A stretch of 64,000 nucleotides of DNA from Escherichia coli (GTDB taxonomy: Bacteria; Pseudomonadota; Gammaproteobacteria; Enterobacterales; Enterobacteriaceae), in the NCBI RefSeq assembly GCF_024223415.1, contig NZ_CP100500.1; one strand, given 5' to 3'. Positions 31,197 through 42,496 of the stretch are shown piece after piece. Within the stretch, counting starts at the first letter, position 1, and each line of letters opens with the position of its first letter. Position numbers and translations under genes: made by a program. A model generated the notes under the pieces. It made no database searches. It saw only the letters and a program-made list of their open reading frames with translations, and had not been told where the DNA came from.

Positions 31197-31257
31197 TAGT
31201 TTAATTGAGTGTGTAACCACATGATTTTAAATAATATGCTTGATTCAACTTTTAAAT

Positions 31258-31284
31258 CGTATAACCAAACGTATAACTAAAATC
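31258..31284. promoter_or_regulatory. Putative integrase arm-type repeats (left island end)
   Basis: cgtataaccaaacgtataactaaaatc; same motif recurs at 42233-42290 next to int. Confidence 0.4.
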
Positions 31285-31447
31285 ATTTGCTGAAAAAGTG
31301 TACAATTTAAAGGCGAGTTTTCCCAGAGGTTTATTAAACTACGAAAATTTCGTAGTTTGTGAATATATTCCGGCCTGCTGGTTAACAGTCCTCAGATGTG
31401 AGGGATGTAGCCAGCGCAATTTTGCGCTTTGCTTTAATCTCAGTCAG

Positions 31448-31729
31448 TTATCGCCGTAACCGCTCCGGCTTCTTCCAGTGGTACGTAATTTTTTCTTTCT
31501 CCCGATACAGTTCAACGCGGCGATTGTAGGCCAGCATTTCCAGAACGCGGATCCGTATGTCGCGCATATCCACGCCGTTAAGCTCAATACCGTCACGGCG
31601 CATCACCTCAGCAACCACACGCGCATAATTTTCGGCGGTCACGCTGTCCGGCTGCGTGGCCTGTTCGTCAGCCTGCTGGCTGATTCCGGCAACGCGACGG
31701 ATTAATCGCAGTAGTTCGGCTTCTGTCAT
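31448..31729 (-). CDS. Hypothetical protein, cos-adjacent
   Basis: 93-aa ORF, plausible composition; no family recognised. Confidence 0.45.
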   Translation of the reverse strand: MTEAELLRLIRRVAGISQQADEQATQPDSVTAENYARVVAEVMRRDGIELNGVDMRDIRIRVLEMLAYNRRVELYREKEKITYHWKKPERLRR

Positions 31730-31761
31730 TGTGCCCCCATCGTTCTGATAGTCTGGTGTCG

Positions 31762-31836
31762 TCGGGTCCTTCCTGGAATTATGGCCCGTTACGGGGCGTC
31801 GACCTCGCGGTTTTTCGCTATTTATGAGATTTTTTG
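31762..31836 (+). other. Lambda-like cos site, copy 1 (cosQ-cosN-cosB start, + orientation)
   Basis: cgggtccttcctgg...cccgttacg|GGGCGTCGACCT|cgcggtttttcgctatttatgag resembles lambda ACGGGTCCTTTCCGG...GGTTACG|GGGCGGCGACCT|CGCGGGTTTTCGCTATTTATGAAAA (lambda sequence from memory). Confidence 0.6.
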
Positions 31837-32285
31837 AGGGGGTGGTTGTTGTTTAATTGTTTGGTATATCTAATTGATAAGTAAGGTAAAAATAAAATAA
31901 ATACAACAACCTTACGGTGTATTTTGATGTCATTAATGTGAAAAAATTCAATGATATCAAATGGTTTTGTAAAAACATATGGTTGTTGTATCGCGTATTT
32001 GATGGCGTAACAGAAAGTGATTTTTAACTTTACCGCTCTGTAACTACGGATTATTCCATGCTGGCACGGAGAACGGCTACGGCATGACGCCACCCAGCCT
32101 ATACAGAACAGTAAAGCCGATAAATTGTTAATCACGCGCAGCAATGCGTGTGATTTTTGCACACTTCCGGTTAACGGGTACGATGTCCGGTTTGTTTGTA
32201 CATTTTTTGCACATGTCCGGTTCGCAGAAAGCATGTTTTTATATTTTTCATATAGTTAACTTGCAGAGAAACCGGACATGGATCC

Positions 32286-32360
32286 CGAAAAATTTTCATA
32301 AATAGTGAAAACGCGCGAGGTCGACGCCCCGTAACGGGTCCACATGCCGGAAAGGACCCG
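32286..32360 (-). other. Lambda-like cos site, copy 2 (inverted; reads cosQ-cosN-cosB on the minus strand)
   Basis: Minus strand reads cgggtcctttccggcatgtggacccgttacg|GGGCGTCGACCT|cgcgcgttttcactatttatgaaaattttt; closer to lambda than copy 1. Confidence 0.65.
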
Positions 32361-32384
32361 CAAAAAAAGCCGGATTTCTCCGGC
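32361..32384 (-). terminator. Terminator after the capsid-module operon
   Basis: Minus strand gccggagaaatccggc followed by a T-run. Confidence 0.5.
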
Positions 32385-32390
32385 CTTGTC

Positions 32391-32804
32391 TCAGATGGTT
32401 TTCAGTATGCGATCGATGTTGCCGTCATCGACCGGGTTTCTGCCATCGTATGCCATGCCAGCTGATACGGCTTTCGGGCTGTGCATGTCCATAAAGTTTT
32501 CAAAGGCTGAAGTAAGCTGTGGTGCAACCTTCGGGCGTTCCTGCTCTATGGTCATGCTAAGGATGCTTTTAGCCGTACCAACATCGATACAAGGCACGTT
32601 AGCCATTGCACGTAACAGCGGCTGGTAGTCGTCAGATTCATGAAGCGCCATAATCGCATCAGCGCGCTGCTTGTCCTGTTCTTCCAGTTTGTTTAGTCGG
32701 TGTATGGCCTCGTAGGTTGATAAACCTCTGTCAGCCATTGCCCGCGCTTCGGCTTTAAATTTACTCGCCAGCGGTAGCGTCATGATACTTTCATTCGTTG
32801 CCAT
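32391..32804 (-). CDS. Hypothetical protein, last gene of the capsid-module operon
   Basis: 137-aa ORF immediately downstream of the gpD-like gene; no family recognised. Confidence 0.55.
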   Translation of the reverse strand: MATNESIMTLPLASKFKAEARAMADRGLSTYEAIHRLNKLEEQDKQRADAIMALHESDDYQPLLRAMANVPCIDVGTAKSILSMTIEQERPKVAPQLTSAFENFMDMHSPKAVSAGMAYDGRNPVDDGNIDRILKTI

Positions 32805-32816
32805 CGTTCCCCCTGC

Positions 32817-33152
32817 TTATCGGGCCAGCGGCTGAACGGATACGCCGGAACCCGCAAAGGCGGCGCATTTTTTCGCATCGGTGTCGACGCTGTCAGGCCA
32901 GTTAACGGCGGCAATATTGAATATCCCCGTTTTGTAACACTGTGCTGATTTCTGCTTTGACGTGTCCACGGGGTGCGAAGTCAGATAAACAGCTTTGCCA
33001 GATTCCTGACCATCCCACGCCTTAAACTCGCCATTGTCTGCCAGCATCAGCGGGGTAAATTCCTGAATAACGCCAGCATCAGCGGCAAAATGTACCAGCG
33101 TCGTGGATACCTGCTGGCTGCCTGCAAATAACTCAATATATGGAGCGTCCAT
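32817..33152 (-). CDS. Head decoration protein, lambda gpD-like
   Basis: 111 aa; conserved blocks shared with lambda gpD as recalled (TPLMLxD...AWDG...YKxGxF...WP...KKxAFAG). Confidence 0.65.
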   Translation of the reverse strand: MDAPYIELFAGSQQVSTTLVHFAADAGVIQEFTPLMLADNGEFKAWDGQESGKAVYLTSHPVDTSKQKSAQCYKTGIFNIAAVNWPDSVDTDAKKCAAFAGSGVSVQPLAR

Positions 33153-33163
33153 AGAATCCCCCG

Positions 33164-34219
33164 TTAAGCAATTTTGACGGTAACAAATTTGCGAATATCT
33201 GCCGGTACCGGCTGCGGTGCGCTGTGCGTCTGCACGTACTCAATCGCCGGATCGCCGTCCTCAATCCAGTTTTTCGGGTAGTACATGTTTTGCGTTGCGC
33301 CCGTTCTTACCGCTTCCTGATCCATAATCGCACCATATGCCACAAGCCCTTTATTGTTGGTGTTACCCAGGACAAGCAAATCAGGCTCAAGGAAATATTT
33401 TTCGGTGCCGTCGCTGTCAGTGTATTTGCCGGAATAGACGATAAGGGCCAGATCACCAAGATAGCCTTTAAAGCTCACCACTTCGCCCAGGTTTTTACAG
33501 GCCAGCTCGGCGGCGGATTCTGAGCCACGGTAAAGATCGTACAGTTCACGGAATTTTTTAAAGCTGCGTAATGTGCGCCATGCCTCACCGCCCATAATCA
33601 TGACGTTGGCGGGGCAACCTGCCTGATCAGCATAAAGCTCGATGTCATAGATTGGGTCGTGCATGTCTTTATCCTGCTGGGACCATTTTTTACCACTGGC
33701 CTGCTGTATGATGCAGTTTTCCGGTATTTTCCAGTCGATTTCATAGCGTTCTATGCCTTCGCCCTCAATGATGTTTTTTCCGGTCGTTACCGCATTCACC
33801 GCCAGCCATTCCACGCGCGCCTTAATGGCGTTTATCTGGCGGCGCATGTTGCCAGTAATCAGGCGCATACGGCGGTAAGTTGGATCGTTAAGCTGTGCCG
33901 GATCTTCTCCAGCCATGCGCATGATGGTCTTTGTTGGATCGATTTCGTGCTTTGGCTTCATGTAGCCTGGTTTAATCGTGCTGGTTTCGTACCCTTTATC
34001 GCGCTGGACCTGACTACCCACCATAGGAGAACAGAACGCTGACATCGTAACCTCTTCAATGTCCAGGGTGTCCAGCATGATGTTTTGGGTGTTGAAGGTC
34101 GCCACGTTCGGGAAAAACAGCGTGGTAAACAGCGGACTAAATTTAAATTCCGAAATATCCCCGCGATTCAGGTACGCGAAAAGCTGGTTAGTTGTAAGTG
34201 CCGTTGCTTTGCCTGTCAT
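33164..34219 (-). CDS. Major capsid protein, lambda gpE-like
   Basis: 351 aa; blocks shared with lambda gpE as recalled (FKFxPLF, PGYMKPKHE, DPxYRRMR, YSGxY, YPKNW, GDPA). Confidence 0.8.
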   Translation of the reverse strand: MTGKATALTTNQLFAYLNRGDISEFKFSPLFTTLFFPNVATFNTQNIMLDTLDIEEVTMSAFCSPMVGSQVQRDKGYETSTIKPGYMKPKHEIDPTKTIMRMAGEDPAQLNDPTYRRMRLITGNMRRQINAIKARVEWLAVNAVTTGKNIIEGEGIERYEIDWKIPENCIIQQASGKKWSQQDKDMHDPIYDIELYADQAGCPANVMIMGGEAWRTLRSFKKFRELYDLYRGSESAAELACKNLGEVVSFKGYLGDLALIVYSGKYTDSDGTEKYFLEPDLLVLGNTNNKGLVAYGAIMDQEAVRTGATQNMYYPKNWIEDGDPAIEYVQTHSAPQPVPADIRKFVTVKIA

Positions 34220-34425
34220 TATTCACCTCCGTGAACCTGATTGATACCCAGCGCCGCACGTAAATAGGTACGCACCTGCCAGCCTGTTGACGGCTCAACC
34301 ATCGCCAGCGGATCAAGTCCTGCCGCAATGCCTGCTTTTACATTCTGCTGGTGGCGTTCCTTGAGCGCCTCCACGATGTCGGGGCTTATGTAGACCGTCA
34401 CCCCGCCTTTTTTCTCTTCTGCCAT
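34219..34425 (-). CDS. Hypothetical small protein, first gene of the capsid-module operon
   Basis: 68-aa ORF whose stop overlaps the gpE-like start. Confidence 0.45.
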   Translation of the reverse strand: MAEEKKGGVTVYISPDIVEALKERHQQNVKAGIAAGLDPLAMVEPSTGWQVRTYLRAALGINQVHGGE

Positions 34426-34592
34426 AGTCAGAAATTCCTCTTTGACTTAAAAAATCATAACTGGATGTTCATCCAGTCCTGATTATAATCATGATTGCAT
34501 TTTGCGCAACAATATTGAGTTACGTTGCAAATTATGAAATGATTATCCCGATCATGTGTGCCAGTGCACCATAAAAAACCTCGTATACAAAA

Positions 34593-34660
34593 GCCCGATA
34601 AGCCCCCTGTGACCTTATCGGGCTTTTTTTAGGCGTAAAAAAGCCGGATTGCTCCGGCTT
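34593..34660. terminator. Pair of terminator hairpins between the finO-like gene and the capsid operon
   Basis: gcccgataagccccctgtgaccttatcgggc + T-run, and agccggattgctccggct preceded by an A-run. Confidence 0.5.
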
Positions 34661-34683
34661 CGTCTCTTCATGTGGTCAGGGTT

Positions 34684-35268
34684 TTATGCTTTCCGTACGC
34701 CCGAGGAACTGGCATTTTTCAGAATAATATTATGCCCTGCTGGTGGCTTACCGTTATGCTTATTTTCTGCCTTCATGTTTCTGCGCTCCTGCTGTTTTTT
34801 CTTCATCTCATCCAGTCGCTTCCCCGCGTTCAACTGGTGCTCCTGTGTCACCTCCCCGCACGGATGGCCTTTCAGGTCGTAACGCACGCCACCAGCCATC
34901 AGGGAACGGTAATATCGCACTGAACTGACATAATACGCCAGCGTTGCGCGAAGCGCTCCCTGACCTAATGAAATACCTCTCGCAGTAATATCCTCCATCA
35001 GGTCATCAAATATGCCAACCTTAAGCGGTCTGGGCGATTCCTGGCTGAAAAGTTCAGGCCAGAGCGCGGCAAGGCGTTCAACGCGTCTGATATTTTTTTT
35101 CCGGCTCTTTTCTGATTTGCGTTTTGCTGCCGTCTTCTGTTGTGTTTTCTGCTCGCGGCTCTGCTTTTGCGCTGGTGTGGTTTTATCCGGCTGTTCAGCC
35201 TCCTGCGTCTTTTTCTGCGGTGTGCCGTATATGCCTTTTGGTTTTCGGTTAATGGTCAGCTTTGTCAT
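34684..35268 (-). CDS. FinO/ProQ-domain RNA-binding protein with a basic N-terminal extension
   Basis: Likely start MTKLTINRKPK (SD ggggagaa upstream); C-terminal region shares blocks with the ProQ N-terminal FinO domain as recalled (LWPELF, RPLKVGIFDDL, DLxGxPCGE). Confidence 0.65.
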   Translation of the reverse strand: MTKLTINRKPKGIYGTPQKKTQEAEQPDKTTPAQKQSREQKTQQKTAAKRKSEKSRKKNIRRVERLAALWPELFSQESPRPLKVGIFDDLMEDITARGISLGQGALRATLAYYVSSVRYYRSLMAGGVRYDLKGHPCGEVTQEHQLNAGKRLDEMKKKQQERRNMKAENKHNGKPPAGHNIILKNASSSGVRKA

Positions 35269-35347
35269 GTTCTCCCCCTTTGTGCTGTTCCACCAGCGGC
35301 ATCTGCTACCCCGTGTCGCTCCCGCTGGTGTCGTGTTTCCCCGCCTG

Positions 35348-35668
35348 TTAATAACCGTCATCATTTACGTTATCAGGGTAATCACGCCATATTTCATCAG
35401 TAAGCGACGGTAGCCCCATCTGTTGTATTGTCCTGTCTGCGGCCCTTCTGACTGCGTGAACATCATAACGGTTTTCAGGTATCGGGCGCTTTGCCTTCCT
35501 GATACATTCCCTTGCTCTCATTGCCGCAAGTTCTCTGTGCCTGTCTTCCTGAAGAGTAATCATCACATCCTGCCACCTTCTGGCAGCCCGTCGCCACAGT
35601 CCCCTGCTCTCGAGTTCTTCTGCTGTCGCGTCGCTTATTGTCCGGTTCTTCGGTGTGCTGTTGTTCAT
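35348..35668 (-). CDS. PerC-family transcriptional activator-like protein
   Basis: 106 aa with AEELESRGLWRRAARRWQDVM, resembling the conserved PerC/Pch motif as recalled. Confidence 0.5.
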   Translation of the reverse strand: MNNSTPKNRTISDATAEELESRGLWRRAARRWQDVMITLQEDRHRELAAMRARECIRKAKRPIPENRYDVHAVRRAADRTIQQMGLPSLTDEIWRDYPDNVNDDGY

Positions 35669-35685
35669 GTTGCTCCCCGCCTGAT

Positions 35686-36096
35686 TCAGAAGGGTATATC
35701 ATCTCCGTAGGGGTCATCGCCTCCCGCTGGTGGCTCATTCCCCTGTGTGCCTGTGGTTTTGCGTCTGTTCCCGCCATGACGTGCCGCACGCGCACTGATT
35801 ACGCTGTCTGCGATAACCTGCCAGCCCTGCCGCGTTTCCCCGTTCTGTCCGGTCCACTGGCTCACCTGCATGTTACCCGCCACGCTCAGGAGTTCACCTT
35901 TGCGGTGCTTTGCCAGTGCTTCGGCCTGTCTGCCAAACGCCAGCACAGATAACCACATCGTCGCCGTTCCGTCATCTGCCTGGCTGCACGGAAGGGGGAC
36001 CGCCATACTCGCCATCGCCATTTGTGTCCCCTTGCTGGTGGTCTTTAACTGCGGGTCAGCCACCAGCCGCCCGTAAGCCGCTATCTGTGCTGTCAT
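35686..36096 (-). CDS. ssb: Single-stranded DNA-binding protein (phage-type SSB)
   Basis: 136 aa; OB-fold pattern (GRLVADPQLK...WLSVLAFGRQAE...) and acidic C-terminal tail GDDIPF typical of SSB. Confidence 0.7.
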   Translation of the reverse strand: MTAQIAAYGRLVADPQLKTTSKGTQMAMASMAVPLPCSQADDGTATMWLSVLAFGRQAEALAKHRKGELLSVAGNMQVSQWTGQNGETRQGWQVIADSVISARAARHGGNRRKTTGTQGNEPPAGGDDPYGDDIPF

Positions 36097-36344
36097 GCTG
36101 TATGCTCTCCGGTTTTAACGTTGATGGTTGTCACCTGTTCCGCTCCGGCAATCTCCCGTTCTGTCAGCGTGGCAAAATTTGCCGCTACCGTTGTCATGAA
36201 TGCGCTTATCAGTTCGGGATGTGCTTTCGCGTATCCTTCTCCCGCGTGGCGGTCTATCGTTCTGATTGCCACCTTTAAGGCGTGCTCTGTCATGTCTAAC
36301 GCTTTATATTTTGGCGCTGTCTTATCTCTGGTTTTTCTGTTCAT
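36093..36344 (-). CDS. Hypothetical protein
   Basis: ORF 36093-36374; likely start MNRKTRDK, just downstream of the iterons. Confidence 0.45.
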   Translation of the reverse strand: MNRKTRDKTAPKYKALDMTEHALKVAIRTIDRHAGEGYAKAHPELISAFMTTVAANFATLTEREIAGAEQVTTINVKTGEHTA

Positions 36345-36560
36345 TCCCCACCACTCCCCACTTTTGCTCCCCACTTTTTAAATTCCCCACTTGCTCCCCA
36401 CCTCGTTTTTTGAGTGAATCTAATGCTTTGTTTTTCATTGCGTTTTTTACTCCCCACTTTTTTGGATGTATACAGGTGGGAAAGTGGGGAATTATGTTTC
36501 AATTTTGTTAAATTCCCCACTCTCCCCACTTTTACTACCCACTTTTTACAGTGGGTAAAC
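36344..36560. repeat. Iteron cluster, putative island replication origin
   Basis: At least nine direct and inverted copies of (a/c)TCCCCAC(TTTT), e.g. actccccactttt, gctccccactttt, attccccacttg, plus inverted gtgggaaagtgggga, next to the primase/helicase gene. Confidence 0.6.
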
Positions 36561-37961
36561 ATCATCCCCATCGACACAAATCACGCCGTCTTTTTCCAGC
36601 TTGGACAGCCAGCGCCGGAAGTGCTTCATCTCATACCCCAGCTTTTTCATATCGTCGCGGAGAAGGGCGATAGTGCATGGCTCTTTGTGTGCCGTCCGCG
36701 TTCTGATGCACTGCCATAGCGCGGTATGGTTTTCCGTCTTGTTGCCTGCCTCCTCGATGCGCTCCAGTTCAACGGGAGAGCGCGGCTTATCAACCACCAC
36801 CAGCGACGTGATTAACTCCCCGTCAGCGTCGGTAAAAAGCTCCACCACGCGTAAATCGTAGGCGGCCTCTTTCAGTTCCTCCGCGTCCTTCATTTTGGTG
36901 CAGGATATAACCAGGGCTTTACTGTCTGCACCTTCTCGGCGAATACGGTATTCAGCGTCCAGAGATGCACGAAATGCACTGGAACCACGCGCCCCCTTTG
37001 TTTCATCCTTGCCGGAATGGTGGACCACCAGCACCGTGGCCCCTGTGCGTCGTTTCAGGTCGTCACATCCACGGATAAACGCCCCCATATCCCGCGCGTC
37101 ATTTTCATCATTACCGCCAAAGCAACGCGCCAGCGTATCCAGAATAATCATGCGTACCGGTTTACCCGTTTCCCGTTCAACCTGGCGGGAAGCGATAACC
37201 ATTTCATCAACATCAAGCGGGGCTGCCGGAAAAATCGGGCGGTTTACCAGGTACAGATTTTTCACCCGTTCATCATTAACGATTTCCCATGCCTTGATAC
37301 GACGGGGGACACCAATGCCACCTTCACCGACAACATACATCACCGAACCATGCGCCACCCTGCGGCCTCCCCAGTGGCGCCCCGTGGCAACATGACACGC
37401 CCAGGAACACGCAAGGAATGATTTATAGGAACCGCTCGCACCGTATGTGCTGCACAATGAATTAGCCGGAATCACGCCCTTAACGACATAATCAAGCTGT
37501 GTGTCGTATCCTGCAGATCCAATGCTCATGGGTAGCGTGGTTTTTCGCTGGCTGTATTGCTCATCAGTAAGTATTTCCCCGCGCTCTGCCTGTTCGCGGA
37601 TCCGTTGCAGGTAGTCGCGCCATTCCTCCCGCTTCTGGCTGTGCATTCCCTCGGGGTAATAACTCGCATCCCGTATACCTGCCGCCGCCAGTTTTTGCCC
37701 GATGGCATTAATATTTGATGGCTTGATGTGGCCTGCCTTGTACAGCCGGACACAATAGCGACCATCGTCGATAATTTTCAGGTCTGCCAGTTCGTCAAGC
37801 TGACTGTCTCCCAGCCATACTGGCGGGACGTTATCGCCAGCAAGTCGCCCGTCCTGTTCCTGCCATTGTTTTGCGTGCGCCCAGGCATCACTACCTGCAA
37901 AAATAATGACTTCGGTCATTTTGTTGTGTGGCTGTTTTTTTAAGTTCGGTGCCAGTTTCAT
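36546..37961 (-). CDS. Replication protein: putative primase/helicase (RecA-like NTPase, AAA_25/RepA-like)
   Basis: 471 aa; P-loop-like GASGSYKSF and Walker B-like MIILDTLARCF; position typical of satellite pri-rep genes. Confidence 0.55.
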   Translation of the reverse strand: MKLAPNLKKQPHNKMTEVIIFAGSDAWAHAKQWQEQDGRLAGDNVPPVWLGDSQLDELADLKIIDDGRYCVRLYKAGHIKPSNINAIGQKLAAAGIRDASYYPEGMHSQKREEWRDYLQRIREQAERGEILTDEQYSQRKTTLPMSIGSAGYDTQLDYVVKGVIPANSLCSTYGASGSYKSFLACSWACHVATGRHWGGRRVAHGSVMYVVGEGGIGVPRRIKAWEIVNDERVKNLYLVNRPIFPAAPLDVDEMVIASRQVERETGKPVRMIILDTLARCFGGNDENDARDMGAFIRGCDDLKRRTGATVLVVHHSGKDETKGARGSSAFRASLDAEYRIRREGADSKALVISCTKMKDAEELKEAAYDLRVVELFTDADGELITSLVVVDKPRSPVELERIEEAGNKTENHTALWQCIRTRTAHKEPCTIALLRDDMKKLGYEMKHFRRWLSKLEKDGVICVDGDDVYPL

Positions 37962-38257
37962 TTTTTATCCCTGAATCCGTTAATCATGGTTTTCATCTTC
38001 TGAATATTGGCGCGTGCTTTCTCCCTGCTGGTTGGTTTACTGCGGGGCGCTGCCTGTACCAGAGAAAAATCACGCCGGAACTGATAAACAGGCATCACGC
38101 AGTCATATTCGTAGCCATCACGGCGGTAAGTGATGCGCCGTTCTGCCACGCCTTTAATCGTTACCGTACCGCCGTAGTTATCACGGAAAATATCGCCGGG
38201 ACGGATTTCAGGCCGAGCGGGGCCGCTGGCAGTAAAGCCAGAATTTTTCTTTTTCAT
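37958..38257 (-). CDS. Hypothetical protein
   Basis: 99-aa ORF overlapping the primase start (ATGA). Confidence 0.45.
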   Translation of the reverse strand: MKKKNSGFTASGPARPEIRPGDIFRDNYGGTVTIKGVAERRITYRRDGYEYDCVMPVYQFRRDFSLVQAAPRSKPTSREKARANIQKMKTMINGFRDKK

Positions 38258-38261
38258 GGTT

Positions 38262-38462
38262 TTATTTTCCTGTCAGTGATTCCGGCTTTATTCCGGCGCG
38301 AATACAGGCTTCAGAAAAAAAAGCCAGAGAACCAATAACCTCATTATTTCTAAGGCGGCATTGCGATTTCACTTTCCCTTTATCCAGGAATATCAAAACG
38401 CGCCCCGTATAATCAGATGGCACATTAAGCACTACAGGTAAGTGCGCTTCATGATTATTCAT
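38262..38462 (-). CDS. Hypothetical small protein
   Basis: ORF 38262-38531; likely start MNNHEAH (66 aa). Confidence 0.35.
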   Translation of the reverse strand: MNNHEAHLPVVLNVPSDYTGRVLIFLDKGKVKSQCRLRNNEVIGSLAFFSEACIRAGIKPESLTGK

Positions 38463-38742
38463 GGCTAACCACCTCCTGGAATTTTCTTCTGTAACGCGCC
38501 TCTGCCACATATTCAGCATAGTCCGACGCAATATTGAGAATATCGCTACCCGTTCCTGAATGTTCGGCGGTTTCCAGTAAAAAACATGCAGCTTTTACCA
38601 TGTCAGCAACACATAACAGCGCAATATCTGTATCTTCCGGTGTGCCATCAAATTCCTGTTTCAGGGCATTAAAACGATCATCACGCATAACCCCATATTC
38701 ACAATCAGCAATCAGGATGGCTTTGGCCTCATTCAGTGCCAT
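38455..38742 (-). CDS. Hypothetical protein (C-terminal, protein-like part of a 595-aa stop-free frame; true start uncertain, could extend to about 38898)
   Basis: Last ~95 codons of frame 38455-40242 are acidic and helix-like; upstream part looks non-protein-like. Confidence 0.4.
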   Translation of the reverse strand: MALNEAKAILIADCEYGVMRDDRFNALKQEFDGTPEDTDIALLCVADMVKAACFLLETAEHSGTGSDILNIASDYAEYVAEARYRRKFQEVVSHE

Positions 38743-38896
38743 ATCAGCGGTAAGCTGTGCGTAGGCCAGCAAATGCGGGATTATTGCCCCTGTATATTCC
38801 GGCTCTCTGATAATGTGGTCGGATGTGTTGATTAAATAGTTTGTGCGAAAAATGCACCTGTAACCATCAGTTAACAACGGATATACAGGGGGGACC

Positions 38897-39067
38897 ATGA
38901 ATGATAAGGGGGTGCCGTTTGATGTGCTCCTGCAAAAGCTGAATGCTGCACGCGCCGCAAGGGAACGTGAGCGCATGAGTAATAACCCTGTCCCTCCTGA
39001 ATTACCTCGCCCTGAACATTTTCCGCTTGAGGATTTCATCAGGGGACGAATCCGAACAAAACGATAA
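38897..39067 (+). CDS. Small ORF a (56 aa); paralogous to ORF c
   Basis: MNDKGVPFDVLLQKLNAARAARERERMSNNPVPPELPRPEHFPLEDFIRGRIRTKR; G-rich SD-like sequence upstream; shares the FPLE-FI / RERER motif with ORF c. Confidence 0.3.
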   Translation: MNDKGVPFDVLLQKLNAARAARERERMSNNPVPPELPRPEHFPLEDFIRGRIRTKR

Positions 39068-39310
39068 CCGCCGCCGTGATATGAGGCATCACGACGCAAT
39101 GCATTACAGGTGAGCACCATGAACAAATCCATATTATCCCCCACAGTTCTGGACGTAAACACAAAGCAGCGACAGATATTATTACGCGCCGTCATTAAAG
39201 CCAGACACGAGAAATTAAACCAAATCTTAAAATAAGATACGCCGCTACCGCTGTAAGTCTTCATCAGAAACAGAAAACGCCAGAGCAGATGAGCACGGAG
39301 GTAACTCTTT

Positions 39311-39505
39311 ATGAAAATAAACGAATCAGGGGAAATTACCGAAGCCAGCGTGGTACGCCAGCGGAGGCGGGAACGACGGGTACGGCCCCCCGCGCCATCC
39401 GATAATTTCCCGCTTGAGCGCTTCATCAGTGAACGGCCCCGCATACGCTGGAACGGCACAACCCCATACCCCGAGGAGAGACAGACAAAAAACAAACAGC
39501 GATGA
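39311..39505 (+). CDS. Small ORF c (64 aa); paralogous to ORF a
   Basis: SD ggagg 8 nt upstream; contains RRRERRVRPPAPSDNFPLERFISERP. Confidence 0.3.
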   Translation: MKINESGEITEASVVRQRRRERRVRPPAPSDNFPLERFISERPRIRWNGTTPYPEERQTKNKQR

Positions 39506-39681
39506 TGAAATCTGGAGGCCAATACCATCACGCAGCCATCAGGAGATTGCTGACGCGCTTCCTGTTCGCTGGTGGCCTCGATGGTAATCACGCGCGGTTG
39601 TGCAGTGCTCAGGGCGATAAAACGCCACACAAAGGCCGTTTGTGTGTGCGCAAGGCGTGGGGTATGCTGTGTTCCAGCCAT
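39460..39681 (-). CDS. Icd-like (host cell division inhibitor-like) protein; 3' end undefined because the frame has no stop until 38455
   Basis: Strong SD (aggag, 9-nt spacer) before ATG at 39681; MAGTQHTPRLAHTQTAFVWRFIALS...TSEQEARQQ... resembles Icd-like proteins of satellite elements as recalled. Confidence 0.35.
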
Positions 39682-39808
39682 AATCGTTACTCCTGTTAAC
39701 GGTTTGGTTAGACGCCCTGCATGTGTGCCACCACTGCGGGGCGTTGTTTTTGTGGTGTCATTGGTATACATTGTCACCTTAATGGCATTATCACTACAGA
39801 GGTTTATC

Positions 39809-39985
39809 ATGTCAACCAATGACAACAAAAAAGAAAGATTTTCCGTACAACTACGCCTAGACGCAGATTTGTTCGAGCGTTTAAGTATTGCCATGAAAGA
39901 AGATGGCGACGATAACCGATCTGGATGGATCAAAAGGCTTTTACGACGCGAATTAGATAAACGCGGCATTGAGTCAAAAAGCTGA
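39809..39985 (+). CDS. Ribbon-helix-helix (Arc/Mnt-like) DNA-binding protein
   Basis: 58 aa; ERFSVQLRLDADLFERLSIAMKEDGDDNRSGWIKRLLRRE parallels the Arc repressor pattern (beta-strand then two helices) as recalled. Confidence 0.5.
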   Translation: MSTNDNKKERFSVQLRLDADLFERLSIAMKEDGDDNRSGWIKRLLRRELDKRGIESKS

Positions 39986-40078
39986 CAGCCAACCAGCAAG
40001 CCAGCACACTGATCACATTGCCCACCAGCCGCAAATGTGGCATTGTTGGTGATGCTTTTGTTTTCCCTTGTTCCCACT

Positions 40079-40108
40079 GGCGACCCTTTTGCGGTCGCCT
40101 TTGTTTTG
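40079..40108 (+). terminator. Rho-independent terminator after the RHH gene
   Basis: ggcgacccttttgcggtcgcc + tttgtttt. Confidence 0.55.
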
Positions 40109-40202
40109 CCTGTTATCCGGCAATTGTGGCGCTTCGCCACACGGTTTATATAACCCCACTGCTCAGATTCATTTTTTGCGCAGTAGGTTAATTGTTCGCA
40201 AG

Positions 40203-40231
40203 GGCGGCTCCTTATCGGGGCCGCTTTTTTC
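40203..40231 (+). terminator. Second plus-strand terminator before alpA
   Basis: gcggctccttatcggggccgc + tttttt. Confidence 0.5.
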
Positions 40232-40256
40232 GTGTTTGTCATATCTGTGATACCCG

Positions 40257-40463
40257 TTAAGCAGCCGTTCCGCGTGCTTCCTGTTCGCGTTCTTTCTGCC
40301 AGGCCAACACATCATCCTCATACCATCCGCGACGGCGTAAACCAACGCGAAAACCCTGCGGAAATTCTCCGGCGTTGATCATGCTTTGCAGCGTGCTGTC
40401 TGCCTTGATGTGGATAATTTTTTTTACTTCCTGGCGAAAGATAATTTTTCTGATTGCTTCCAT
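40257..40463 (-). CDS. alpA: AlpA-family regulator / excisionase-like protein
   Basis: 68 aa; HTH region LQSMINAGEFPQGFRVGLRRRGWYEDDVLAW typical of AlpA-family proteins. Confidence 0.7.
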   Translation of the reverse strand: MEAIRKIIFRQEVKKIIHIKADSTLQSMINAGEFPQGFRVGLRRRGWYEDDVLAWQKEREQEARGTAA

Positions 40464-40593
40464 CGTGATTTACCTTGTGAATCCGGTGTATTCCGGTGAC
40501 AAATACGGTAAATCATCGGATATGGGTAAAAACAGTTCCCACCGTTTTTAAACGGTATACACCGTTTTTTATATTGATGATTTGAAATGGAAT

Positions 40594-40622
40594 TATAAAA
40601 AAAGCGGCATTTCTGCCGCTTC
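40594..40622 (-). terminator. Terminator between the int-proximal ORF and alpA
   Basis: Minus strand agcggcagaaatgccgct followed by a T-run. Confidence 0.45.
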
Positions 40623-40630
40623 CAGGATTG

Positions 40631-40882
40631 TTACCGCCATTTTTTGGGCCTGCCTCCGATCTTCATAGATGCCGGACGTACGACCTTATCAATACTTACC
40701 GCCAGATTTCTGGAAGCGCCACGGGATACCAGAAAATCTACTACCTGTTTTTTTGATGGGGCCGTCGTCCTGTCCTCCGGATCGTAGGTTGACCAAAATT
40801 CATGCTGAACCATCAGGGCCAGTTGCAGCCCGTCGCAATTGCATCTGATATTTTTTTGCATCTTAACGGTTTCATGTTTCAC
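40631..40882 (-). CDS. Hypothetical protein between int and alpA
   Basis: 83-aa ORF with basic C-terminus (GGRPKKWR). Confidence 0.4.
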   Translation of the reverse strand: MKHETVKMQKNIRCNCDGLQLALMVQHEFWSTYDPEDRTTAPSKKQVVDFLVSRGASRNLAVSIDKVVRPASMKIGGRPKKWR

Positions 40883-40959
40883 GGCCTTGTCGTTAAATTT
40901 GATGCAATTATACGACGGTTTTACATGGTTTTCGTAGTTTTTACTGGTTTTCTGTACAG

Positions 40960-42219
40960 CTACACGGCTCGGATACCCCTTTTACCACTGGCGAGGGTTA
41001 CGCCCGTCGCCGCAGCCTCGACAAATTCGCCCCACCAGCGCATCAGCACGATGCGTTTTTCTATGTAGTTGCTCCGGTTGTATGCCCGTCTAACTTCGTT
41101 GGTGTCGACGTGGGCAAGTGCCGCCTCTATTACGTCCGGCTCGAATCCTTCCTCGTTCGCTGCTGTGCTGAATATGGCGCGTAATCCATGAGACACCAGC
41201 ACGCCAGCGAATCCCATACGCCGCAATGCTGCGTTAGCTGTCTGGCTGTTCATCGGCTGCTGTGGGTCTTTCAGACTTGGGAAAACGTAATTGCGGTGGT
41301 GGCTGATTGGTTTCATGGCCTCCAGCACCGCCATAGCCTGACCGGAAAGCGGGATAACGTGATCCCTGCGCATCTTCATGCGTCCGGCAGGTATCGTCCA
41401 TTGCTTCGCGTCCAGGTTGATTTCATCCCACCGCGTTGATGACGCTTCGGCGGGACGGGTTACGGTCAGTAACTGCCATTCAATCAGTAATCTGGTCTGC
41501 CGTTCTGTTGCCGATACTGATAAAGCCTGCATAAGCTCGGGCAGCTGTTCGGGGCGGATTGTTGGCATATGTTTTTTTACAGGTGAGGGAAACGCCTTAC
41601 GCACATTCATAGCCGGATTGGCATCAATCAGCCCACTGTTGGCGGCGTAATCCATTACCTCATTAACGCGCTGTAAAACCCGCTTGAGTGTTTCCAGGTT
41701 GCCGCGCTCCTTGATGGGGGTAAGCACTTCAACGAACCTTCGGGCGGTGAGGGTATCTATTGGCGTGTTGCCGATGAACGGGAATACATATTTATCCAGC
41801 GAACGCCAGATGTCTTTAATCGTGTTGGGGGCCAGATTCTGGCTGATTTTCACCTGGTACCATGCCGCCGCCACATTTTCGAACGTGTTCCCTTGTCTTC
41901 GGGCCTCTGTCTCTCTTTTTTGCCTCTCGTGGTCCTGCGGGTCAGTTCCGGCACTGATTAACGTCCTGTACTCGCTACGGCGTTTTCTGGCATCAGCCAG
42001 GGAAACATCTTCAAGCGATCCAAAACTCAGCAATATTCTTTTTTTGTCCGATGGTCGGTAGTAGGAAAATCTCCAGAGTTTTGATCCAGACGGTTTGACC
42101 AGGAGAAAAAGCCCTCCGCCGTCCTGCAGGGTGTACTCCTTTTGCGCTGGTCTGGCTGCTTTGATCTGCACTGTGGTTAATGGGTGTGTTTTTCTCGCCA
42201 TATGTCTATGATTCCACAC
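40960..42219 (-). CDS. int: Tyrosine recombinase / integrase (P4-type)
   Basis: 419 aa adjacent to tRNA-Pro; N-terminal arm-binding region (LFLLVKPSGSKLWRFSYY) and C-terminal catalytic domain (HGLRAIFST...LAHV...RAYNRSNY). Confidence 0.9.
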   Translation of the reverse strand: MWNHRHMARKTHPLTTVQIKAARPAQKEYTLQDGGGLFLLVKPSGSKLWRFSYYRPSDKKRILLSFGSLEDVSLADARKRRSEYRTLISAGTDPQDHERQKRETEARRQGNTFENVAAAWYQVKISQNLAPNTIKDIWRSLDKYVFPFIGNTPIDTLTARRFVEVLTPIKERGNLETLKRVLQRVNEVMDYAANSGLIDANPAMNVRKAFPSPVKKHMPTIRPEQLPELMQALSVSATERQTRLLIEWQLLTVTRPAEASSTRWDEINLDAKQWTIPAGRMKMRRDHVIPLSGQAMAVLEAMKPISHHRNYVFPSLKDPQQPMNSQTANAALRRMGFAGVLVSHGLRAIFSTAANEEGFEPDVIEAALAHVDTNEVRRAYNRSNYIEKRIVLMRWWGEFVEAAATGVTLASGKRGIRAV

Positions 42220-42232
42220 GAAAAAACAGGGT

Positions 42233-42290
42233 TTTAGTTATACGGCTTTAGTTATACGTCAGCCCGTATAACTAAACGTATAACTAAAAA
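42233..42290. promoter_or_regulatory. Cluster of putative integrase arm-type sites
   Basis: ttagttatacg x2 (inverted) and cgtataactaaacgtataactaaaa between int and the tRNA. Confidence 0.4.
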
Positions 42291-42419: not shown

Positions 42420-42496
42420 TGGTCGGCACGAGAGGATTTGAACCTCCGACCCCCGACACCCCATGACGGTGCGCTACCAGGCTGCGCTACGTGCCG
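42420..42496 (-). tRNA. proL: tRNA-Pro (proL-type)
   Basis: Reverse complement reads CGGCACGTAGCGCAGCCTGGTAGCGCACCGTCATGGGGTGTCGGGGGTCGGAGGTTCAAATCCTCTCGTGCCGACCA (77 nt, cloverleaf-compatible). Confidence 0.9.

Follow-up and report, generated by a model that had tools for sequence, protein, structure and literature searches.

A repeat array behind the RepA-type helicase gene of an Escherichia coli phage-inducible chromosomal island as its probable replication origin

Introduction

Where does an integrated phage satellite begin to replicate once it is induced? The question is raised by a 64,000-nucleotide stretch of Escherichia coli DNA (NCBI RefSeq assembly GCF_024223415.1, contig NZ_CP100500.1; hereafter the window, numbered from its first letter), in which an 11-kb phage-inducible chromosomal island (PICI) carries a replication gene, rep, followed directly by a dense array of short repeats containing CCCCAC. 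A sequence-only reading of the window had taken these repeats for an iteron-type origin bound by the island replication protein, Rep. Precedent in the same island family, the presence of equivalent arrays in other genera and the co-variation of the repeats with Rep together support this proposal, and we put the probability that the array is the replication origin of this EcCICFT073-type PICI, which lies beside tRNA-Pro and yejM, at roughly 0.85.

Gram-negative PICIs were defined by Fillol-Salom et al. (2018, ISME J, PMC6092414). According to that paper, the origin (ori) of E. coli PICIs lies immediately 3' of (pri-)rep and consists of two groups of iterons on either side of an AT-rich stretch; the rep-ori segment of EcCICFT073 let a temperature-sensitive plasmid persist under restrictive conditions of temperature, an ability that deletion of rep or ori abolished or weakened. 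Both this kind of origin and PICIs with a RepA-type Rep are already published; our finding is correct but ordinary, and it leaves understanding unchanged because the origin type is on record. The only parts with some novelty are the co-variation of Rep residues with repeat bases and the RecA-fold initiator of a PICI, neither of which was found in the literature searched. The practical value of the result is that it correctly locates the origin of an E. coli phage satellite that is very common (at least 80% of a rep-plus-array query is present in 624 of 5,426 complete genomes), helps to annotate islands whose genes RefSeq names only 'hypothetical' or 'helicase RepA family', and helps to build satellite-derived vectors.

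Organization of the repeat array

The hexamer CCCCAC occurs 22 times on the two strands of the window, and nine of these copies, eight of them + and one -, fall within the 184 nucleotides (nt) of 36346-36529. The rate in the rest of the window predicts 0.044 copies per 217 nt (Poisson P(>=9) = 1.7e-18). On the + strand of 36344-36560 the motif recurs as TCCCCAC(T/C), and the array contains nine of the window's 11 TCCCCACY octamers. The sequence-only reading had described at least nine copies, in both orientations and irregularly spaced, and these are present in the interval that it named. Degenerate copies lie in register with the exact ones (TACCCAC at 36536-36542 and, on the + strand, GTGGGAA at 36476-36482 and GTGGGT at 36551-36556), and alignment with six diverged E. 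coli islands reveals 11 conserved repeat positions with the core GTGGGGA on the gene (-) strand, nine of them direct and two inverted. The core spans 7-9 bp and the spacing within clusters is irregular, at 8-16 nt.

The array of 11 conserved repeats and their spacers, the putative ori, occupies 36345-36542 (-), from 4 nt past the rep stop codon (36546-36548, -) to the ATG (36344) of a gene encoding 83 residues. Its position directly downstream of the gene, as claimed earlier, is confirmed; the gene's label 'primase/helicase' is only half borne out, as no primase domain was found. Read along the gene strand, the array opens with three direct repeats and an AT-rich spacer; two inverted repeats follow, then the palindrome TGTATACA and a single direct repeat, and a 49-bp AT-rich spacer leads to the last five direct repeats. 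The Rep-proximal cluster (36514-36542, -) comprises repeats 1-3, which read GTGGGTA at 36536-36542 and GTGGGGA at 36523-36529 and 36514-36520; their positions are kept in seven E. coli islands and their cores change together between islands. A 23-bp spacer (spacer B, 36491-36513) separates repeat 3 from repeat 4, and the inverted pair formed by repeats 4 and 5 (36476-36490, +) reads GTGGGGA at 36484-36490 and GTGGGAA at 36476-36482. The palindrome (36467-36474) stands between inverted repeat 5 and direct repeat 6, a GTGGGGA at 36451-36457 (-) located by the CCCCAC search and the island alignment. The 49-bp spacer (spacer A, 36402-36450) divides repeats 1-6 from repeats 7-11, the Rep-distal cluster (36345-36401, -), in which all five cores are GTGGGGA, starting at 36395, 36384, 36368, 36355 and 36345; the last of these abuts the ATG of the 83-residue gene.

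The AT-rich context noted earlier is confirmed by the spacers, with a GC content of 31% in spacer A and 13% in spacer B against 50% for the island. We regard spacer A as a candidate DNA-unwinding region and the palindrome as a candidate site of first DNA melting. The palindrome is kept as (C)TGTATAYA or GCATATATAC in loci from E. coli, Xenorhabdus, Gilliamella, Rahnella and Klebsiella. When folded as single-stranded DNA the array forms hairpins (z = -3.1), which arise from the inverted repeat copies.

Scans for promoters and terminators gave no sigma-70-like promoter and no terminator in or beside the array, and consensus searches for DnaA boxes and IHF sites were negative over 36300-36600. 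An Rfam scan of the whole island returned the tRNA alone and nothing in the array, and a DNA search of a phage collection with the array region gave no match. On the gene strand, 36345-36361 (repeats 10 and 11) reads GGGGAGTGGTGGGGAATG, with GGGGAG cores that resemble Shine-Dalgarno sequences ahead of the start of the 83-residue gene; these putative binding sites therefore double as Shine-Dalgarno-like sequences, and Rep occupancy of the repeats might link replication with expression of the downstream operon.

Conservation of the array among E. coli islands and across genera

Seven diverged E. coli loci (L005-L011), whose Rep proteins are 62-94% identical to that of the window, were compared, and an array is present in all seven. 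The intergenic regions align in register and keep the same 11 repeat positions, with all copies changing together from island to island: the core is GTGGGGA in the window, L005 and L006, GTGAGG in L007 and L008 (O157:H7 included), GTGAGTA in L009, and GTGGGCA in L010 and L011. The published islands EcCI11128, EcCI11368.1, EcCI042 and EcCIRM12579 carry the same RepA-type rep gene, and one Rep accession is common to EcCI11368.1, EcCI11128 and L006, the repeats of L006 being GTGGGGA. The islands of CFT073 and ATCC25922 encode, instead of the RepA-type helicase, a 584-residue Rep of the D5_N/DUF5906/Pox_D5, P4-family primase type, and the equivalent 300 nt of EcCICFT073 hold 11 of the 16 copies of TCTACC/GGTAGA found in 45 kb (GGTAGAYA repeats). 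Islands with the same integrase and helix-turn-helix (HTH) protein but a D5-type Rep have quite different repeats.

The alignment also removes two readings of the local sequence. A possible twelfth repeat, the inverted GTGGGT at 36551-36556, falls within the coding sequence of rep and stays CCCAC in L009, where the repeats have become CTCAC, so it probably reflects coding (codon) constraint and is probably no binding site. A peptide-coding role for the array, through open reading frames (ORFs) at 36341-36577 (-) and 36266-36511 (+), is ruled out by single-nucleotide insertions and deletions between E. coli islands (alignment columns 29 and 128); RefSeq places no gene there.

A scan of one genome per species identified 72 loci with relatives of the Rep helicase and C-terminal part, 66 of them usable, in other genera of Enterobacterales, including Xenorhabdus, Hafnia, Kosakonia, Kluyvera, Serratia, Pectobacterium, Erwinia, Morganella and Gilliamella (50-72% identity). 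If an array is taken to be a 7-mer present in at least five exact copies in the 350 nt that follow the stop codon, 45 of the 66 rep loci have one; of 757 control windows drawn from these loci, 3 do. Absence of the repeats from related islands with the same rep, the observation that the sequence-only reading named as telling against an origin, is thus not what either comparison shows. The repeats fall into the classes GTGAGGA, GTGGGGA, (G)TGGGGGA, GTGCGGCA and GTGCGCA, and several loci below the threshold still display decayed copies and the central (C)TGTATAYA or GCATATATAC.

Apart from two weak DUF4222 matches, the cross-genus loci with retained repeats yielded no homologue of the 83-residue protein, the island single-stranded DNA-binding protein (SSB) or DUF4222, and the N-terminal part of Rep varies, giving proteins of about 350, 455-471 or 700 residues. 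As the neighbouring E. coli genes are missing from these loci, the repeats travel with rep, and since the N-terminal part is itself variable, the linked unit is the helicase, the C-terminal domain and the repeats.

A few loci merit separate mention. A 16,971-bp circular Klebsiella pneumoniae 'plasmid' (L088, CP018459.1) encodes an integrase, a capsid protein, a head-tail adaptor and terminases, and has no other annotated replication gene; its Rep homologue is followed by GTGCGGCA repeats in the same layout, CTGTATACA included. The record looks like a capsid-forming satellite; it fits an extrachromosomally replicating form that uses this replicon, and could also reflect the assembly of excised circles. 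Another excised PICI may be represented by a 10,790-bp E. coli 'plasmid' (NZ_CP148328.1), which has DUF4222 and a primase-like gene. In L022, L028, L047, L062, L063, L066-L068 and L070 the arrays are decayed, truncated or missing; the rep frame of L047 continues beyond the usual stop and L028 seems to have lost most of its array. Such loci may be defective islands.

Domain architecture of Rep

The rep gene (36546-37961, -) encodes 471 residues, matches Pfam AAA_25 (E = 8.6e-44) and is annotated in RefSeq as a 'helicase RepA family protein'. An AlphaFold2 model (pLDDT 81.8) divides the protein into an N-terminal alpha/beta domain (residues 1-130), a RecA-fold, RepA-like helicase domain (approximately 150-395) and a C-terminal winged-helix domain (approximately 400-471). 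In Foldseek searches with the helicase core the best fit relative to target length was the hexameric RepA of RSF1010 (1g8y; target TM-score 0.71), followed by RAD51/RadA, KaiC, T7 gp4 and Twinkle, and a sequence search of the PDB with Rep returned a marginal match to RepA alone (E = 0.0086). As modelled, Rep is a RecA-fold helicase of the RSF1010-RepA-like kind.

Pfam searches with the N-terminal 140 and the C-terminal 72 residues gave nothing significant, and neither Pfam nor family profile searches detected a primase domain in Rep. Matches to TIGR01613, D5_N and Pox_D5, all obtained with the CFT073 Rep, are missing from the window Rep, which also has no Rep_3-type Pfam match. The 'primase' label is unsupported because the first 130 residues have no family match. 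At the DNA level, codons 1-118 of rep (37608-37961) are 94% identical to the opening of a D5-type 'DNA primase family' gene from a different E. coli island; identity with many other genes, some of the DUF927 type among them, is 70-76%. On the strength of the 94% identity, the N-terminal domain is a module shared between Rep types.

The region encoding the predicted C-terminal winged-helix domain (residues 400-471; 36549-36764, -) was assigned from AlphaFold2 models and Foldseek. Modelled alone (pLDDT 87.1), the domain folds as helix-helix-helix-hairpin, with helices at 410-424, 431-440 and 448-457 preceding a beta-hairpin, and it matches the winged-helix folds of HrcA, PcaR, Fur, LexA, DtxR, MecI and ORC/MCM8 with probabilities of 0.8-1.0 for most of the matches listed and modest E-values (0.014-0.2). 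Codons 442-451 (GYEMKHFRRW; 36609-36638, -) are predicted to form the turn and the start of the recognition helix; with the third helix modelled at 448-457, residue 447 would be at its N-cap.

Co-variation of the Rep motif with the repeat core

The C-terminal 72 residues of Rep hold a motif, G-x-x-x-K-X-F-x-R-W (442-451 in the window protein), whose variable residues track the repeat core. K-H accompanies GTGGG (GTG-G-GG/GC) in nine of nine loci having arrays, K-N accompanies GTGAG (GTG-A-GG/GT) in 22 of 22 loci, and x-K-K-F, with a one-residue insertion, accompanies TGGGGGA in 23 of 26. R-K-S-F is found with GTGCGGCA in all four loci of that class and in the Klebsiella episome CP018459.1, and R-R-G-F with GTGCGCA at one locus. 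K-N-M-R is paired with GTGAGTA and K-H-L-K with GTGGGCA. The C-terminal domains of L007 and L005 differ at six residues, one of them H447N, and in every repeat of L007 the fourth core base, with which H447 co-varies, is A instead of G. By sequence identity L007 (N-type) groups among the H-type Reps of E. coli and is distant from the N-type Reps of Xenorhabdus; the H/N switch therefore seems to have arisen at least twice, separately in L007 and in Xenorhabdus.

These observations, read on the predicted structure, point to the C-terminal winged-helix domain as the part of Rep that would bind the repeats. The 83-residue protein, SSB and DUF4222 were rejected as binders: none has a homologue in the cross-genus loci with arrays, apart from the weak DUF4222 matches noted above, and DUF4222 also stands beside D5-type Reps with other repeats. 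The natural co-variation of one Rep position with one repeat base amounts to a directly testable specificity rule and indicates that RecA-fold helicases, too, serve PICIs as initiators.

A bolder proposal, which we hold tentatively and consider just short of an even bet, is that Rep is a superfamily 4 (SF4)-type helicase (RecA-fold, RSF1010-RepA-like) that loads itself at its own origin through the fused winged-helix domain, with an N-cap code for base 4 of GTGNGGA in which His447 would specify G, Asn A, Lys with a one-residue insertion GG, and Ser or Gly C. A self-loading helicase with a fused winged-helix domain has so far been characterised only for the SF3/SF6 Reps of staphylococcal islands. 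If the proposal is true, a single substitution with a concerted repeat change would create new replicon specificities among the satellites of Enterobacterales.

Co-resident islands provide a further observation on specificity. Three loci coexist in the genome of Xenorhabdus hominickii (L019, L021 and L026) and two in that of X. anantnagensis (L018 and L020), all with a VKNFS motif and GTGAGGA repeats. The idea that co-resident islands must differ in repeat specificity is refuted by these genomes, in which no incompatibility-driven divergence is visible; because motif and repeat class are the same, the Rep of one island could fire the origins of the others.

A model for initiation and its alternatives

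Taken together, these results suggest the following sequence of events. Helper-triggered induction and excision of the island would lead to production of the 471-residue Rep, whose C-terminal winged-helix domain would recognise the 11 repeats (GTGGGGA), with H447, just before the recognition helix, reading the fourth base. Rep gathered on the direct clusters and on the divergent pair around TGTATACA would then open the palindrome and the AT-rich spacers, the RecA-fold, RepA-like helicase domain would load itself on the opened DNA without DnaA, and host primase and polymerase together with the island SSB would copy the circle. Binding by the winged-helix domain, the melting site, the self-loading of the helicase and the independence from DnaA are the steps that we infer. 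Helper-independent replication once induced, as predicted by the sequence-only reading, would follow by analogy with EcCICFT073, an island with a different (D5/P4-type) Rep family; for induction by a helper phage, autonomous replication and high-frequency transfer, too, EcCICFT073 is the sole precedent.

Several points weigh against this interpretation. The only functionally tested ori in the PICI family is paired with a D5/P4-type Rep, and as the window Rep has no detected primase domain, priming must come from elsewhere. At 13 of the 66 cross-genus loci no 7-mer occurs in more than three exact copies, these being decayed, truncated or distant homologues, and L066 and L067, which have the K-H motif, show no recognisable array. 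The co-variation is confounded by shared ancestry, such that few independent switches can be counted, and the winged-helix assignment rests on AlphaFold models and on Foldseek matches with modest E-values (0.014-0.2). Finally, with repeat 11 directly against the start codon of the next gene, the binding of Rep could serve to regulate expression as well, or instead.

The last point leads to the alternative that the Rep-binding sites are mainly regulatory, acting as an operator, a roadblock or a handcuffing copy-control element for the downstream operon (the 83-residue gene, ssb, perC and onward), with initiation elsewhere. The contact of repeat 11 with ATG 36344, the Shine-Dalgarno-like GGGGAG cores and the placement of the array between two co-directional genes are in its favour, and plasmid iterons commonly have a dual role. 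Set against it are the origin-like anatomy of AT-rich spacers and a conserved palindrome between opposed repeats, the lack of a sigma-70-like promoter there to control, the persistence of the array in other genera with different downstream genes, and the need, shown in PMC6092414, for the same location in plasmid maintenance within the same island family. We consider an exclusively or mainly regulatory function unlikely; an origin is favoured over pure regulation by the precedent in the family and by the anatomy of the array, with its AT-rich spacers and a palindrome set between divergent repeats, and a dual origin and regulatory role is plausible by analogy with plasmid iterons. It is distinctly less probable still that the repeats are unrelated to Rep and form a late-operon promoter-operator bound by another island or helper-phage protein, such as an AlpA-like activator or a repressor. 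The array is indeed intergenic and upstream of a gene block, in an island that encodes several small DNA-binding proteins, but in about 60 loci its core varies in step with the C-terminal motif of Rep, the repeats remain beside rep where homologues of the 83-residue gene, ssb and DUF4222 were not detected, and islands with the same integrase and HTH protein but a D5-type Rep have quite different repeats.

Two further explanations have almost no weight. PICIs need a signal for packaging, and cosB regions can contain repeated binding sites for terminase, which would lend some sense to the array as a cos or pac recognition site; we consider this scarcely credible given that the repeats follow the rep allele and that lambda cosN-like sequences lie elsewhere, at 31794-31807 and 32316-32329. 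With cos-like sequences at 31.8 and 32.3 kb, the array was rejected as the cos site. Chance clustering, or low-complexity sequence, with no function has nothing but the shortness of the motif to commend it and is already refuted by the comparative data, namely the conserved positions with concerted change and the excess of arrays over control windows (45/66 versus 3/757), in addition to the Poisson probability of 1.7e-18; we give it virtually no chance.

Relation to known replication systems

The origin of the EcCICFT073 type is the nearest precedent for the array as an origin. The islands share architecture, attachment (att) class and size, and in both the repeats lie in both orientations 3' of rep, flanking AT-rich DNA; EcCICFT073 differs in its D5_N/DUF5906/P4-family Rep and GGTAGAYA repeats, where the window has a RepA-type Rep and GTGGGGA. 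The replication module of the Staphylococcus aureus pathogenicity islands (SaPIs) consists of a Rep initiator-helicase with a C-terminal winged-helix domain and an iteron ori (Ubeda et al.; Mir-Sanchis laboratory, NAR 2022, PMC9371898). It resembles the window locus in having 6-12 short repeats right after rep with opposed copies around an AT-rich centre (11 in the window, of which repeats 4 and 5 are inverted), and in the C-terminal winged-helix domain, which is predicted in the window Rep; a self-loading, DnaA-independent logic is expected here as well. The SaPI Reps, however, have SF3 or SF6 (AAA+) helicases, in contrast to the RecA-fold AAA_25/RSF1010-RepA-like core of the window Rep; the two systems have no sequence homology, and the window host is Gram-negative. 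Because of its RecA-like AAA_25 core and its structural matches to RepA, Rep would work like a SaPI Rep but outside the SF3/SF6 families.

Satellite P4 is likewise an E. coli phage satellite with helicase and C-terminal origin binding in one polypeptide, a combination that is predicted for the window Rep. The P4 alpha protein, which is also discussed in PMC6092414, binds short repeated octamers through its C-terminal part. Alpha is, however, a P4-family primase with an SF3 helicase (TIGR01613 is matched by the CFT073 Rep and not by the window Rep), P4 has two separated repeat regions (ori and crr; type I repeats) in place of one compact array, and the gene content of the window island is unlike that of P4. 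The IncQ plasmid RSF1010 supplies the closest solved fold (RepA, 1g8y), and iterons adjoin AT-rich DNA in both systems. In RSF1010 the origin is recognised by a separate protein, RepC, and priming is carried out by RepB'. The window Rep differs in that the winged-helix domain is fused to the helicase, and its sequence similarity to RepA is marginal (E = 0.0086). Classical iteron plasmids (Rep_3/pi/TrfA) have an initiator of the Rep_3/RepA-WH1-WH2 type, regularly phased iterons of 17-22 bp and DnaA boxes, in contrast to the 7-9 bp core and 8-16-nt spacing seen here; the window has neither a Rep_3 Pfam match in Rep nor DnaA or IHF consensus sites in 36300-36600.

The host island

The island (31257-42290, -; 11.0 kb) is bounded by att repeats at 31257-31283 and 42264-42290 and adjoins tRNA-Pro(GGG) (42420-42496) and yejM, with the integrase gene at 40960-42219. 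In Table S1 of Fillol-Salom et al. (2018; PMC6092414) several PICIs are placed at a 'yejM-luxR' site, their att core being TTTGTAGTTATACG..., the repeat also seen in the window; the att copies of the window resemble the yejM-luxR core TTTGTAGTTATACGTTTGGTTATACGG of that table. The island genes are all encoded on the - strand. In transcriptional order, rep is preceded by a tyrosine integrase, a small HTH protein with a weak AlpA match (E = 0.0035), a 595-residue Icd-like ORF and DUF4222, and the array is followed by the 83-residue gene (phrog_1231; 36093-36344, -), whose start codon abuts repeat 11, and by genes for SSB (35686-36096, -; Pfam SSB, E = 6.7e-16), PerC, ProQ/FinO, a major capsid protein resembling lambda gpE and a head decoration protein. 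The island SSB is likely an accessory replication factor.

This order is that of EcCICFT073 (L003:32931-43655), namely int, HTH, Icd-like, DUF4222, pri-rep, gap, small gene, SSB, PerC, capsid and decoration, and the island is also syntenic with EcCIATCC25922, the integrase and HTH accessions of which are identical to those in the window. Because of the shared gene order, the shared integrase and HTH accessions and the att core, the 11.0-kb element is, by sequence comparison, assigned to the EcCICFT073-type PICI family; the PICI features found comprise its size (about 8-12 kb is typical) and att site, the unidirectional int-HTH-rep-ori-capsid module, the iteron layout and a cos-like sequence. 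The stretch compared is 100% identical to that of E. coli strain 135, and this particular island is not named in PMC6092414.

The cosN-like sequence GGGCGTCGACCTCG occurs twice, at 31794-31807 and 32316-32329, each copy with one mismatch in 14 to lambda cosN and with lambda-like flanks. The two cos regions, 31786-31830 (+) and 32285-32335 (-), are inverted, about 520 bp apart and near the non-integrase end of the island, with TTTTCGCTATTTATGA... as a lambda-like flank. Repeats of the GTCCGGTT type at 32168-32280, between the two cos-like regions, could be terminase-binding sites.

The 595-residue ORF (38455-40242, -), annotated in RefSeq as 'host cell division inhibitor Icd-like protein', matches a phage repressor family over residues 188-246 and phrog_2512 over residues 474-594. 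Related PICIs have several small genes over this stretch (an Icd-like one of about 66 residues, YlcI/YnfO and hypotheticals), and the long ORF may be a fusion or an annotation artefact.

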